Shown here one piece after another: positions 25,706 through 53,835 of a stretch of DNA of 64,000 bases. Below the pieces are notes generated by a model that searched no databases, was not told the origin of the DNA, and saw only the letters and a list, made by a program, of their open reading frames with translations. The position numbers and the translations under genes were made by a program. The stretch is from IMG/VR virus record IMGVR_UViG_3300037067_006949, positions 61,427 to 125,426 of that record; one strand, written 5' to 3'. The DNA is from a virus. Taxonomy: Duplodnaviria; Caudoviricetes. Every line of letters begins with the position of its first letter. Position 1 is the stretch's first letter.

Positions 25706-26893
25706 TTATATTTTCCACCAATTTGAGTTGTCAGAAATCACTCTTACACTTTGCAATCCAGTCAAATCAACTTGAGAAGCGCTATCTATCAAACCAGCAG
25801 CAGTTATGACGCTTACGGTCATACTTCCACTATTTTTAACGATATATGGCAGCCCAAGTTTTCCTACCGGAGTTGGCAACGTGATTAAAGAACTTCCCGT
25901 TACTAGGCAAACATAATCGGTGTTCAATAATGAATAATCACTTGTTTTTGAAACAATAGGAACTGGAGCCGCAACATACGATGCACTTCCAGAAGTTACA
26001 TGCCCATATACATCTACGTTCACCTTGACATATGAACCAGCAGTAACACCAGATGCATTATGTTTTATTTGTGATCCAGTTGTGGTAGACATTATTCCAG
26101 AACCAGCGATTCCAGCAAGAATAGTCGTGTTCGTATAGCTTCCGGTTGTTGAATCATAGGAATATAATGCTTTTCCAACTACACCAGTTGCGGTTATCGG
26201 CATAGCAACTATGCTTCCAGATATTGCATGTCCATAAACGTCAAATAATATTTTGTTATATGAGCCAGTTGTTATACCAGATACATTATGCTTTACACTA
26301 GAACCCGTTGTATCTGACATGACTCCAGAACCAGAAATCTCAAATAATACGCTGCTTCCAGATATGCCACTATCTTGAAGTGTTCCGCTACCACTAATTG
26401 ATATCCAATTTCCAGATATTCCAGAAATGCTTATCTGATCTGCGGTAGTAGTTCCCATCAAGACATAATATGTTCCATTATAAACAAATAGAGCATATCT
26501 TCCAGATTTCAAATCCCCCGATTCCATATCTACCAAATTTCCAAGAAAATCTATTTTCTTTAAAGTTATTATGCCAAGACTATTTATGTTCAAAGTAACT
26601 GCACCCGTATTGACCGCATTTAACTTTAAAGTTATCATAGAATTTGTTAAATATGAACTTATTCCAGATACGGTAGCTTCATAATAATTTTCAGTAATTA
26701 CACTAGCATTTACATTGACAAGCAAATTGCTTTGTATGCTAAGTATTGATCCGCTAACTGTTCCGGCAAAATTATCAATGAGAACCATGTTTGAAGAATT
26801 TCCTGCCACTGCTAATCTGAAAGTTTGAAAAGTTGTAGCAGAACCAGACGCGGTATCATAAGTAGTTAGACCTAAATTTGTTGTTGTGGTCAC
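25706..26893 (-). CDS. Tail fibre-like protein
   Basis: NTGAVTLNINSLG tail-fibre motif; two copies of a ~43-aa repeat with GSY.K...DVYGH..SGS; Ser/Gly/Thr-rich. Confidence 0.75.
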   Translation of the reverse strand: MTTTTNLGLTTYDTASGSATTFQTFRLAVAGNSSNMVLIDNFAGTVSGSILSIQSNLLVNVNASVITENYYEATVSGISSYLTNSMITLKLNAVNTGAVTLNINSLGIITLKKIDFLGNLVDMESGDLKSGRYALFVYNGTYYVLMGTTTADQISISGISGNWISISGSGTLQDSGISGSSVLFEISGSGVMSDTTGSSVKHNVSGITTGSYNKILFDVYGHAISGSIVAMPITATGVVGKALYSYDSTTGSYTNTTILAGIAGSGIMSTTTGSQIKHNASGVTAGSYVKVNVDVYGHVTSGSASYVAAPVPIVSKTSDYSLLNTDYVCLVTGSSLITLPTPVGKLGLPYIVKNSGSMTVSVITAAGLIDSASQVDLTGLQSVRVISDNSNWWKI

Positions 26894-26915
26894 ACTAATT
26901 TTCTCCTTTCAGAAT

Positions 26916-27473
26916 TTATACAGTAACGGTATCCATTTCGGATAGTAATATGCCGTCTAAATCGCTTAATAAACTTCCGTCAAAATAGCTTACCATATAA
27001 TATTGTTCGCAAGTAATTGTAGGAACTAAAGATATGCTTGGAAGTGTAACGTTCGAATTTCCCAATGTCAAATTTTGATTCATCGTTGCCATCATTGCAT
27101 TAGGAAGGGCAACATCAACCGCGCCCATTCCTTGCAACATTTTAATTACAATATTCATCACGGGTGCTTTTATTGAAACCGGAATAGCCAGTGATTGTAT
27201 CAATTTTATCAAAGATGACGTAAACCCTAAAGATACCTTTTTTATATCTATATTTGATACTAAATTGAATCTTAATACGGCTTGACTAAACCCAATCTCA
27301 AATTTATTGTGAATATTGATAAACCATGATATAGCGGGTTCAATTTCGCCAGAAATCACGCCAAAACTATGAGAATTTCTAATATAAGAATTAAAGGAAT
27401 GGGAATTGTTGATAAACGAAGTAAACATTCTACTATTTCGAATATAAGAATTGAACGAATGTTTAGCTGGCAT
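26916..27473 (-). CDS. Putative tail structural protein with N-terminal 10-aa repeats
   Basis: HSFNSYIRNS present twice plus a degenerate copy; lies in the tail operon. Confidence 0.5.
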   Translation of the reverse strand: MPAKHSFNSYIRNSRMFTSFINNSHSFNSYIRNSHSFGVISGEIEPAISWFINIHNKFEIGFSQAVLRFNLVSNIDIKKVSLGFTSSLIKLIQSLAIPVSIKAPVMNIVIKMLQGMGAVDVALPNAMMATMNQNLTLGNSNVTLPSISLVPTITCEQYYMVSYFDGSLLSDLDGILLSEMDTVTV

Positions 27474-27485
27474 AATTACCTCCCA

Positions 27486-27899
27486 TTAATTTGTCATTGA
27501 AAACGATATTGCGCTTGCAGAAAATGAAACAGTTGTGGCATCCTGTACGATTTTTGGAGATAACAATGTTTGATAGAACCAAACATTTCCAGTAGCAGAT
27601 GCGGAAGTATCCGCCAAAAATACATCGGAAATGGTTCCCCAAGATGCTGTGCTTACCGGAAACGTAATATCAACATTATTATAAAGAGAACCACTAGAAG
27701 AATAGGTAAAGTTAGATTTGTTATTTGCCAATCCAACTCTAGCATATCCTTTACCTCCCGTTGGTTCTGTTGCATTAGAACCGCTACTAGAAATAGTTGT
27801 TGTACTTAAACCAATATAATAATTGGCTGGAGGCGAAAATGACACACCTCCAAACATATTATTAAGTACTGATCCAGATGCATAATAAGTTATGGACAT
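27486..27899 (-). CDS. Putative tail structural protein
   Basis: YIGLST...EPTGGKGYARV...ITFP...WGTI motif typical of phage tail proteins. Confidence 0.7.
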   Translation of the reverse strand: MSITYYASGSVLNNMFGGVSFSPPANYYIGLSTTTISSSGSNATEPTGGKGYARVGLANNKSNFTYSSSGSLYNNVDITFPVSTASWGTISDVFLADTSASATGNVWFYQTLLSPKIVQDATTVSFSASAISFSMTN

Positions 27900-27911
27900 C
27901 GGTTTGCCTCC

Positions 27912-28256
27912 TTATGAAATTTGAGAAAATATTTGAATAATCCCTTGTGATGGCCTGGCAACACTAGAGCCAGTTGTTATCACGGGTTGATGTATGAACT
28001 TTCCAGATAGAGTTGCCGTATCAGTAGGCGCAAGTATCACTTGCATTCTGTTATTTGGAACGCCAGGAACAGTTGCGTTTTTTGTTAATATGGCACTTCC
28101 ACTTCCATATCTCGCCATCTCCCAAGTACAAGTACTGCCACCCAAGTCCATCGCCGTACTTCCGCTAGTATATATATCAAACGTAAATTCTTGTTCTGTT
28201 CCGGCAATAAATGAGACTTGTTCCAAGTCACAAGCCGTAACCAAAGAAAAGGACAT
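27912..28256 (-). CDS. BppU-like baseplate/Ig-like protein
   Basis: V.L.PTDT..LSGKF.HQ pattern; tail operon context. Confidence 0.55.
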   Translation of the reverse strand: MSFSLVTACDLEQVSFIAGTEQEFTFDIYTSGSTAMDLGGSTCTWEMARYGSGSAILTKNATVPGVPNNRMQVILAPTDTATLSGKFIHQPVITTGSSVARPSQGIIQIFSQIS

Positions 28257-28258
28257 TG

Positions 28259-28447
28259 TTACCCTCCTTCCTTGACAGGCGTTTCTTGAGCCTGTTTTTG
28301 TTCGTTTAATTGTTGAATGACCTGTTGCAACGTATATATTGAGTTATAAAGCAACTGAAGATTTGGCATCCCCTTCACTTCTAATTGATTCAACGTATTG
28401 TAGGTGTCAACAAGTTTTTTAAATGTTTCAAAATCTAAATTGTACAT
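28259..28447 (-). CDS. Small coiled-coil protein, possible tail chaperone
   Basis: 62 aa, Q-rich helix, GGAG RBS. Confidence 0.5.
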   Translation of the reverse strand: MYNLDFETFKKLVDTYNTLNQLEVKGMPNLQLLYNSIYTLQQVIQQLNEQKQAQETPVKEGG

Positions 28448-52615: not shown

Positions 52616-52650
52616 ACAATTCGCCTCCTTTCCAAGAAAGTTATTCATTG

Positions 52651-52842
52651 CTAAAAATTCTTTAACAACTTTAACCACCATGGTAAACTTTCTAAAATTT
52701 CTTGCAATAAATCGTTATCTACGAAATAATAATAATCACTATCTACCGATAATAACGGTAAATTCCTTTCATATTGCAGATAATTGGCTAATAATTTTTT
52801 ACATTTAAACTTATGAGGCATACTCTGCACGTTTATTATCAT
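52651..52842 (-). CDS. Small hypothetical protein
   Basis: 63 aa; GAGG RBS; tightly packed in the operon. Confidence 0.55.
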   Translation of the reverse strand: MIINVQSMPHKFKCKKLLANYLQYERNLPLLSVDSDYYYFVDNDLLQEILESLPWWLKLLKNF

Positions 52843-52844
52843 GT

Positions 52845-53330
52845 TTATCCCTCAAGTGTTGAATCAAATAATACTAGGTCTTTTACGGCAAAAGATTTTT
52901 TCATAAATTCGTCCGCCTCATCTTCTTCTGCTATTTGAATTGTAAGAAATTTTTGTATAAATTCAACATCTATATATGAATTTTCAGAATAAATAAACTC
53001 CGCTATACTCTGTAATGATTTTGTAGTTTCTATTTCAGTAGACAAATATAATTCTGCCACTTCATTTATAGAATTCAAATTAATTTCGGGAACATCTAAT
53101 TCGACTGGCCTATATTTCCCGCCCAATCTATCATTAAGATATTCAATCATTTGCGAATAGTGCCCATATTCTTCATCTGCTTGGCTATAAAATTTCTTTG
53201 CAAGATTTTTTAATCTTAAATCTTCAAAATAACTTGCAATAATTTTATATTTAATCATATTCAAAAGTTCATGCTTACATTGTAAACAAATAATTTCATT
53301 TAATGATTCAGAAATTTTCAATAGAAACAC
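52845..53330 (-). CDS. Ferritin-like protein
   Basis: HEL.N...Y, QADEEYGH, E.ETT, FL..QIAEEDE: ferritin ferroxidase pattern; 161 aa. Confidence 0.85.
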   Translation of the reverse strand: MFLLKISESLNEIICLQCKHELLNMIKYKIIASYFEDLRLKNLAKKFYSQADEEYGHYSQMIEYLNDRLGGKYRPVELDVPEINLNSINEVAELYLSTEIETTKSLQSIAEFIYSENSYIDVEFIQKFLTIQIAEEDEADEFMKKSFAVKDLVLFDSTLEG

Positions 53331-53339
53331 CTCCCATCT

Positions 53340-53431
53340 TTAACTTAGAAAAAATAATATTTTCTATTTTATCAAAATCCCAATATGGAATTCTTATTTA
53401 CAGAATAACAATAAAAATATTTGTTTTCCAT
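53340..53431 (-). pseudogene. Deletion remnant: start of a small gene joined out of frame to an endonuclease C-terminus
   Basis: RBS plus MENKYFYCYS in one frame; IRIPYWDFDKIENIIFLS* in another. Confidence 0.5.
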
Positions 53432-53499
53432 TCAAATTAATCCTTTTTAATTATAGATACAGGAGGACAATTTCATTTTATTGTCCTCCCTTCAGCACT

Positions 53500-53835
53500 T
53501 TAGCGTGCAAGCGCAATCCAATTAAAGATATCGCCATTGGCAATCGCAGCAACACCAGAGGCGCTAGTAACCGTAATATCTCCAGTAGTAGAACCGGCAA
53601 CAGTTTTCAGACCAAATGTTCCAACGCTACCAGAACGAGACGACTGAACTATCCACATCGAAGGAACTGAAGAAAATCCGGTTGTAATATTAACGGTTGC
53701 ACCAGTTGCAGTTACGCTACCACTAGTTAAACTGCCACTAGCAGCAAGCATACTAACCATATTACCAAGACCAACATCTTTCGCGGCACGATTCATTTTG
53801 TTCAAATGATTTTTTTGAGTTGTAGAAATTGACAT
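53500..53835 (-). CDS. Putative head fibre/decoration protein
   Basis: ATG at 53835 after GGAGG; LNKMNRAA..V.LG N-terminus; Ser/Gly/Thr-rich beta domain ending NWIA. Confidence 0.55.
   Translation of the reverse strand: MSISTTQKNHLNKMNRAAKDVGLGNMVSMLAASGSLTSGSVTATGATVNITTGFSSVPSMWIVQSSRSGSVGTFGLKTVAGSTTGDITVTSASGVAAIANGDIFNWIALAR

Follow-up and report, generated by a model that had tools for sequence, protein, structure and literature searches.

The tripeptide Ser-Gly-Ser (SGS) was found in strong excess (about sixfold) in the outward-facing virion proteins of a tailed phage represented by the virus record IMGVR_UViG_3300037067_006949. The window analysed is a stretch of 64,000 bp corresponding to positions 61427–125426 of this 125,426-bp record, which is 91% complete by CheckV and has a G+C content of about 35%. 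An initial annotation of the window had proposed that [ST]-G-S is the acceptor sequon of a glycan locus lying at 5.8–19.1 kb. Since the SGS excess was observed only in phages encoding one particular transferase, SGS is probably the site of the phage's own sugar coat. The best available reading, drawn from sequence comparison and backed by at least three unrelated lineages, is that [S>T/A]-[G>A]-S is probably the acceptor motif of a cytoplasmic, phage-encoded system for O-glycosylation of the virion. The GT4-like glycosyltransferase gene at 17966–19066 tracks SGS richness best, and its product is a candidate initiating protein O-transferase.

Ser-Gly-Ser in the virion module

The virion module forms the minus arm of the genome (23.4–64 kb) and encodes TerL, the portal, a peptidase, the major capsid protein, neck proteins, the tail tube, the tape measure, the distal tail protein Dit, the hub, a BNR protein, and fibre proteins. 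The plus arm comprises replication and nucleotide genes together with the 13-kb glycan locus. According to the capsid protein comparison, the nearest cultured relatives are Enterocloster phages (37–38% identity), of which PMBT24 is one, and SPbeta-like phages of Bacillota are more distant.

In the 29 minus-arm open reading frames (ORFs; 25706–53874; 8,708 amino acids (aa)), 40 SGS were counted, against 7.2 ± 2.6 expected from 3,000 per-protein residue shuffles in which composition was kept (maximum 18). After removal of the repeat-bearing fibre ORF 25706–26893, 32 SGS remained versus 6.3 expected. The first-order Markov expectation of 23.1, a null regarded as over-conservative, was still exceeded (p = 9e-4). 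When all 8,000 tripeptides were ranked, SGS came first with a z-score of 12.1, followed by a runner-up with a z of 6.5 on 3 counts. The near-motifs SGT, TGS, TGT, AGS, and SGA reached only 1.3–1.9 times their expectations, including TGS (8 vs. 5.2), SGT (7 vs. 5.0), and TGT (5 vs. 3.7), and NGS occurred twice with 4.3 expected. The tripeptides of the same composition as SGS were found 11 times (GSS, 7.1 expected) and 15 times (SSG). The SGS excess is real and strong. Both AGY and TCN codons are used for the serines at the sites, which rules out a DNA-level motif and indicates selection on the protein rather than on a DNA word. The per-ORF counts of the initial annotation were reproduced exactly, and the enrichment that it had expected to persist against composition-shuffled proteins did so.

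The excess is restricted to virion proteins. A recount agreed with the earlier observation of no SGS in the internal or assembly proteins (tape measure, major capsid protein, and TerL) and three in the plus arm; the tape measure, an internal virion protein, serves here as a negative control. The 691-aa protein encoded at 50606–52681 also lacks SGS. No SGS excess was detected in the flanks of the glycan island. The remaining proteins of the record, outside the 29 minus-arm ORFs, contain 14 SGS versus 7.3 expected, of which the portal has one and three short ORFs on the minus strand at the opposite contig end together have six. These ORFs lie outside the window (C1:708–3116, with 2, 3, and 1 SGS) and, should the genome be circularly permuted, are probably part of this virion arm. 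Candidate sites occur in at least 11 proteins, dispersed among their loops. The virion proteins with and without SGS are as follows:

25706–26893, minus strand: terminal fibre-like protein, 395 aa, 8 SGS and 5 TGS, internal repeat
27486–27899, minus strand: fibre-associated protein, 137 aa, 3 SGS, Pfam PF23140 (Gp80 fibre I, E 5e-26)
27912–28256, minus strand: small virion-module protein, 114 aa, 2 SGS and 1 TGS
28459–30513, minus strand: BNR/Asp-box beta-propeller protein, 684 aa, 3 SGS, Pfam Sortilin-Vps10/BNR
30513–33614, minus strand: tail hub or minor tail protein, 1033 aa, 4 SGS, phrog_6211 (E 1e-79), Pfam Prophage_tail
33626–34435, minus strand: distal tail protein Dit, 269 aa, 1 SGS, phrog_33
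34510–37353 and 40772–41758, minus strand: tape measure gene pieces, 0 SGS, consecutive parts of the phrog_4211 profile
44116–45141, minus strand: tail tube protein with an extra C-terminal domain, 341 aa, 4 SGS, assigned by fold
46544–47572, minus strand: neck-region protein with a C-terminal domain Ig-like by fold, 342 aa, 7 SGS
47581–48051, minus strand: small head-tail joining protein ("adaptor" by position), 156 aa, 2 SGS
48908–49996, minus strand: major capsid protein, 362 aa, 0 SGS, tblastn match to the annotated PMBT24 major capsid protein
50027–50575, minus strand: small protein adjoining the capsid gene (labelled "decoration" in the initial annotation), 182 aa, 3 SGS
53500–53874, minus strand: small virion-module protein, 124 aa, 3 SGS
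63819–63998, minus strand: partial ORF at the contig end, 1 SGS

Of the names given initially, "tail tube" and the Ig-like end of ORF 46544 were borne out by fold and "BNR" by Pfam, and "adaptor" and "capsid decoration" are guesses from position. The tail tube protein matched cryo-electron microscopy structures of tail tube proteins in Foldseek (E 3e-11, TM 0.74–0.78). The fibre-like protein has only a weak match, to phrog_37034 of unknown function; its homologues in SGS-rich relatives carry 13 and 24 SGS.

Within the proteins, the sites occupy particular parts. The four SGS of the hub (residues 553, 610, 681, and 899) are in the C-terminal half, past the conserved hub core, and six of the seven SGS of the neck protein fall within residues 264–331, inside its C-terminal Ig-like domain (residues about 251–342). 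For the neck protein (pLDDT 82) and the tail tube (pLDDT 76), AlphaFold2 (AF2) models place every SGS in a loop or in a 2–3-residue hairpin turn between strands, in line with the surface-loop location anticipated earlier. The tail-tube sites (residues 101, 292, 295, and 329) are all in loops, three of them in the extra domain that follows the tube fold at the C-terminus. Most of the modelled sites are thus in added domains of Ig-like type.

Transferase genes accompanying the excess

For comparison, 15 related phages were taken as whole records, six of them SGS-rich and nine flat. Genome-wide z-scores for SGS were 10.0, 10.9, 11.2, 12.4, 8.3, and 15.5 in the rich records (G000, G002, G003, G033, G034, and G035, respectively) and from −0.8 to 2.8 in the flat ones (PMBT24, MT835481, G004, G005, G007, G009, G011, G014, and G017). 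The capsid-protein family has many members in IMG/VR, and the SGS excess within ±10 kb of their capsid genes is bimodal, with z-scores of 4–12 at 25 non-redundant loci and about 0 at 38. On the capsid tree, the SGS-excess state needs at least five changes. Orthologous neck, adaptor, and head-side proteins sharing 40–50% identity contain 1–8 SGS in the rich genomes and 0–1 in the flat ones, as had been expected of relatives lacking transferase genes; the neck protein orthologues of the nine relatives without the transferase core contain none. Orthologues of the protein at 50027–50575 carry 1–4 SGS at shifting sites in the other SGS-rich phages and 0–1 where the core is absent, and the family of the protein at 53500–53874 is present in 5/6 SGS-rich genomes and 1/9 others. 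The major capsid protein is free of SGS in all six rich genomes. With nine relatives and 11 unrelated phages flat, SGS richness as a general property of phage structural proteins was ruled out.

Alignment of the sites gave about 55 distinct columns in eight protein families, most of them occupied in only one or two genomes. Columns invariant among the rich genomes were found in the tail tube (6/6), the adaptor (5/5), and the neck protein (5/6); at the conserved adaptor site, all nine other orthologues have unrelated polar residues. Sister rich genomes often show the near-cognates TGS, SAS, or AGS in a site column, whereas flat genomes show unrelated polar residues. This ongoing, position-independent gain of SGS fits a motif selected for its identity and not for its position.

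Pooled over the six rich genomes, SGS occurred 340 times versus 84 expected (4.0-fold), compared with 109 versus 89 (1.23-fold) in the nine flat relatives. TGS and AGS were each raised 1.7-fold in the rich pool, SGT 1.3-fold, SGA 1.2-fold, and SGN 1.2–1.3-fold, and SSS, STS, and SNS were not enriched (0.8–0.9-fold). The last Ser thus appears strict and the first position tolerant. In the initial form of the motif, [ST]-G-S, the SGS part stood, and Thr in the first position proved to be only a weak variant. At 259 pooled sites from the same six genomes, Val, Ile, and Thr were enriched 2.0–2.4-fold at +2, and acidic residues were depleted at −1, +1, and +2 (Glu 0.1-fold at −1).

The gene contents of the 15 genomes were compared by blind all-against-all clustering. 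Only four gene families were present in 6/6 rich and 0/9 flat genomes, all of them with members in the glycan locus:

5839–19066, plus strand: whole glycan locus, with a deoxythymidine diphosphate (dTDP)-sugar pathway and at least eight transferase-like genes
12115–12777, plus strand: DUF3431 protein, core, Pfam PF11913
15119–15934, plus strand: GT-A-fold transferase-like protein, core, no Pfam family, conserved N-terminal strand and DD motif
17020–17874, plus strand: GT2 glycosyltransferase, core, Pfam PF00535 (E 1e-29)
17966–19066, plus strand: GT-B (GT4-like) glycosyltransferase, core, Pfam PF13692/PF00534 in the C-terminal half

The dTDP-sugar pathway of the locus includes an RmlC-like epimerase, a nucleotidyltransferase, a 4,6-dehydratase, a DegT aminotransferase, and an RmlD-like reductase; the rest of the locus encodes GT2, DUF5672, methyltransferase-like, DUF3431, GT11-like, GT17, GT25, GT-A-like, second GT2, and GT4-like proteins. 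The epimerase/dehydratase gene at 7079–8035 was found in 5/6 rich and 0/9 flat genomes, and the SGS-rich G003 and G034 have only the four-gene core plus an epimerase. The predicted co-occurrence of SGS richness with transferase genes was therefore observed (6/6 vs. 0/9); the pairing of SGS with the locus holds for the four-gene core, and above all for the GT4-like gene, and not for the locus as a whole. The position of the island varies among the phage genomes, and G005, whose record is complete and has terminal repeats, lacks it wholly. Two or three changes of the paired SGS–island state are needed on the trees of TerL, the portal, and the hub. The head module of G035 differs, yet its tail genes, island, and SGS excess are common with the phage studied here.

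The GT2 protein at 17020–17874 has as its closest solved relatives the GT2 domain of chondroitin synthase and streptococcal GalT1 (5hea, E 2.5e-14). GT2 genes in general were ruled out as a marker, PF00535 being present as a single large ORF in the flat G007, G013–G015, and G030. In G013–G015 (L060, L061, and L063) and G030 (L059), all without SGS excess, this is a 620-aa ORF with an N-terminal GT2 domain; in G013–G015, it is located inside the structural module and represents a distinct virion-associated transferase. For the GT-A-like protein at 15119–15934, no sequence relative was found among solved structures, and predicted structure gave leads to viral and bifunctional glycosyltransferases. 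Its more distant homologues (25–42% identity) occur in 11 genomes or contigs that have neither SGS nor [ST]GS excess, so this family as a whole is not the determinant, and it was rejected as a marker. The GT4-like protein gave no sequence match at E < 0.01 to any solved glycosyltransferase structure, including GtfA.

Homologues of the GT4-like protein outside the family were retrieved with an alignment of that protein, and flanks of ±10 kb were taken unselected. In 28 non-duplicate GT4 flanks, 159 SGS were counted versus 62.5 expected, and 8/28 reached a z of at least 3; 45 control flanks, around GT-A-only genes, gave 100 versus 82.4 and 0/45 (Fisher p 2e-4, Mann-Whitney p 5e-6). Four whole contigs with a G+C content of 0.45–0.52 showed z-scores of 7.1 (G078; 24 SGS vs. 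6.3 expected), 4.8 (G087; 30 vs. 12.9), 4.3 (G091; 33 vs. 15.9), and 3.0 (G092; 18 vs. 9.0). SGS is the top tripeptide of G078 (G+C 0.52), and TGS is raised in G087 (27 vs. 11). The GT4 gene alone is common to these four contigs and the phage studied here, and it is also the sole gene that G078 has in common with the other three. In all four, it lies among the SGS-bearing genes, which in G087 encode major tail proteins; the SGS-rich proteins of G078 have no match in PHROGs. The tripeptide S-A-S is raised 1.4–2.5-fold in these out-of-family GT4-bearing phages. Over 30 whole records, the ten with a GT4 gene had z-scores of at least 3.0 and the 20 without it had at most 2.8, a raw contrast uncorrected for selection and phylogeny.

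Two further genomes bear on the arrangement of these genes. The 100-kb contig G071 (L296) has the closest GT4 homologue found (63% identity), no more than 10 kb away from the capsid gene, at a locus with 15 SGS versus 2.1 expected and no other island gene nearby, so the GT4 gene can sit alone in the structural module within the phage family. In G039 (L244–L252, 173 kb), distant homologues (22–29% identity) of six island genes occur without SGS excess; its top tripeptide is TPT (36 vs. 11.3 expected), which could reflect Pro/Thr linkers or a different acceptor pattern.

Proposed virion O-glycosylation and its alternatives

If SGS is the acceptor, the GT4-like enzyme would, during infection, recognise [S/T]-[G/A]-S in exposed turns of structural proteins, whether already folded or still folding, and add the first sugar, most likely to the strict last Ser of the motif. 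Elongation of the glycan would fall to the GT2, GT-A-like, and DUF3431 proteins and to the variable GT17, GT25, and DUF5672 proteins, with the use of dTDP-activated deoxy or amino sugars made by the locus. No transmembrane-like segment was found in the 16 island products (maximum KD19 1.35), and no membrane oligosaccharyltransferase, flippase, polymerase, or lipid-carrier machinery was found in the island; the glycan would thus be built in the cytoplasm directly on the acceptor. The assembled particle would carry a glycan coat on the tail, neck, and fibres, the predicted targets being the fibre, the C-terminus of the hub, the BNR protein, the extra domain of the tail tube, the Ig-like neck domain, and small head-associated proteins. 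Such a coat may shield the particle from proteases, antibodies, or adsorption traps, or may serve adhesion.

Several observations weigh against this reading. The putative system has no cultured carrier, the cultured relative PMBT24 being without it. DNA is a possible target, given that genes of nucleotide metabolism adjoin the island. The GT4 flanks may hold more structural genes than the control flanks, and the whole contigs G078, G087, G091, and G092 were picked after the flank signal had been seen. The neck-protein tree puts the six SGS-rich genomes in one clade; shared ancestry therefore explains part, and not all, of the association at the family level. G004 and G005 have neither the island nor a genome-wide excess, yet each has three SGS in the tail tube, two of them at columns common with the SGS-rich phages; these may be a trace of a lost system. 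Finally, an SGS hairpin is a good turn-former, so loop location alone cannot discriminate.

The single clade, the tail-tube sites kept by G004 and G005 without the island, and the placement of all modelled sites in turns or loops would also be expected if SGS reflected a lineage's habit of loop design. It would then be a tripeptide preferred for tight turns or flexible loops, which had spread through the structural module of a single group of recombining phages for the sake of folding, flexibility, or receptor binding, with the transferases co-inherited or co-selected by the same hosts and acting on another target. The enrichment of Val, Ile, and Thr at +2 agrees with this, as it is expected where a strand starts after a turn. 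However, the equally good turn tripeptides SGT, SGN, DGS, NGS, and TGT are not enriched, and the orthologous loops of the relatives fold without SGS. Moreover, the excess also occurs beside GT4 homologues in the unrelated lineages of 0.45–0.52 G+C, which have no structural genes in common with this phage, and the gene-content comparison yielded only transferase genes tracking the trait. This alternative is considered unlikely.

It is less likely still that SGS is recognised in the course of some other modification or by some other partner (for example, a kinase of host or phage origin, another transferase, or a factor of the host), with the glycan locus serving DNA hypermodification or host surface polymers. 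The locus does adjoin genes for NT5C, deoxynucleoside monophosphate (dNMP) kinase, and ribonucleotide reductase, and phage transferases are best known for DNA glycosylation, as stated in a review (PMC12619734). On the other hand, the thymidylate-synthase-like hydroxymethylase PF00303 was not found in the 91%-complete genome, although it was detected in control genomes, and the dNMP kinase is also present in relatives without the island; together, these two results weaken the case for DNA as the target. Among the island products, there is no membrane protein, flippase, or polymerase suited to work on wall polymers. The gene-content comparison yielded no kinase or other enzyme of modification that follows the trait, and in other lineages the GT4 gene is located inside the structural module. 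A statistical artefact of Ser/Gly-rich, repeat-containing fibre proteins is extremely improbable and was rejected: the SGS-bearing proteins are indeed Ser-rich (10–19%) and the internal repeat of the fibre ORF duplicates some sites, but the excess withstood the per-protein shuffles, the removal of that ORF, and the Markov null, and GSS and SSG did not share it.

Phage-encoded O-glycosylation of the virion might also extend well beyond this family. The phage-specific GT-B (GT4-like) proteins could mark a widespread, undescribed system whose sequon, [S/T]-[G/A]-S, is borne by tail, neck, and fibre proteins in their exposed loops, the system being present in at least three unrelated lineages and producing lineage-specific glycans by means of variable transferase cassettes; the chances for and against this broader proposal are judged about equal. 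No description of an SGS-type sequon or of such an enzyme set in phages was found in the literature. If the proposal is true, virion glycan coats would be predictable from sequence alone, glycan-coated phages would be recognisable in any metagenome by the sequon together with the diagnostic transferase gene, and the exposed surfaces of virion proteins not yet characterised would become mappable. The proposal would then also bear on phage therapy, through antibody recognition and half-life, and on the interplay of gut phages with mucus and hosts, and would offer a compact, soluble, sequon-directed O-glycosylation system for glyco-engineering.

Known glycosylation systems and interrupted genes

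Glycosylation of mycobacteriophage virions by phage-encoded glycosyltransferases was reportedly described by Freeman et al. in Cell Host Microbe in 2023. To our knowledge, glycosylation of phage particles has been shown chemically in mycobacteriophages only, and no sequence rule predicts it. In these phages, according to PMC12619734, the capsid and tail tube subunits receive glycans at their C-termini from phage-encoded transferases. The system proposed here is alike in that soluble transferases of the phage itself would act on its virion proteins, the tail tube subunit among them, and in the glycan being proposed as a shield. The tail tube is a partial likeness, as its C-terminal extra domain holds three of its four sites. 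The differences are that the capsid protein has no candidate site and the tripeptide is spread over loops of at least 11 proteins, that the hosts are of the low-G+C Firmicutes type, the relatives being Enterocloster phages, and that the locus, which has a dTDP-sugar pathway and no fewer than eight transferase-like genes, greatly exceeds the mycobacteriophage one in size.

The serine-rich repeat adhesins of streptococci and staphylococci are O-glycosylated in the cytoplasm, with initiation by the GT4 proteins GtfA/GtfB followed by GalT1, dGT1, and others. A soluble GT-B/GT4-type candidate initiator acting on Ser and soluble, sequential elongation by GT-A enzymes without a lipid carrier are likewise predicted here, the latter in keeping with the lack of transmembrane segments, and the GT2 protein matches streptococcal GalT1. 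By predicted structure, the GT-A-like protein resembles one half of bifunctional enzymes containing GT-D, which is regarded as a lead. In contrast, the substrate of the GtfA/GtfB system is one secreted adhesin with long Ser-X repeats, whereas isolated SGS in folded loops of many proteins are found here, no GtfB-like partner was seen, and the GT4-like protein lacks a match among solved structures at the threshold given above.

In Lactobacillaceae, the SASSAS signature motif marks the O-glycosylation of S-layer proteins (PMC10221546). Common features are the acceptor pattern of Ser, a small residue, and Ser in surface proteins of Firmicutes, and the raised S-A-S in the out-of-family GT4-bearing phages; the S-layer system differs in being bacterial and in modifying a secreted lattice protein with one or few motif copies, and its enzymes have no known relationship to those of the phage.

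Chloroviruses and giant viruses glycosylate their capsids by means of virus-encoded cytoplasmic transferases. As in the phage studied here, the virus encodes nucleotide-sugar synthesis and many soluble transferases, unusual families included; their use to coat the particle independently of the host machinery is what is proposed for the phage. These are, however, eukaryotic viruses with N-linked glycans at atypical sequons of the capsid protein, unlike a tailed phage with a presumed Ser-O target and a spared capsid protein. General O-glycosylation of the PglL/PglO type (D-[ST]-[AILVMT] in Bacteroidota) is different, since the island encodes no membrane protein, the motif is another one, and acidic residues are depleted before SGS. 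T4-like DNA glycosylation differs by its PF00303 hydroxymethylase, which was not found in the 91%-complete genome. The analogy with the Ser-Gly attachment site of eukaryotic glycosaminoglycans, drawn in the initial annotation, was rejected on the residues flanking SGS: xylosyltransferase sites have acidic flanks, and Glu at −1 and Asp/Glu at +1 and +2 are depleted here.

Endonuclease-type ORFs were noted at two places in the window. The tape measure gene, taken initially as encoding one 1353-aa protein, is in two pieces (40772–41758 and 34510–37353) separated by an HNH endonuclease ORF (39300–40595) and the ORF 37566–38675, the latter with weak family matches of its own, and this layout looks intron-like. 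In the glycan locus, in the stretch 15934–17874 (plus strand), a 114-aa ORF matches only the first 51 positions of the GT2 profile and is followed by an HNH_3 endonuclease ORF (16265–17041) and the complete GT2 gene. The 114-aa ORF could be a remnant or an interrupted gene, and a short GT2-like ORF is found at the equivalent place in G002.

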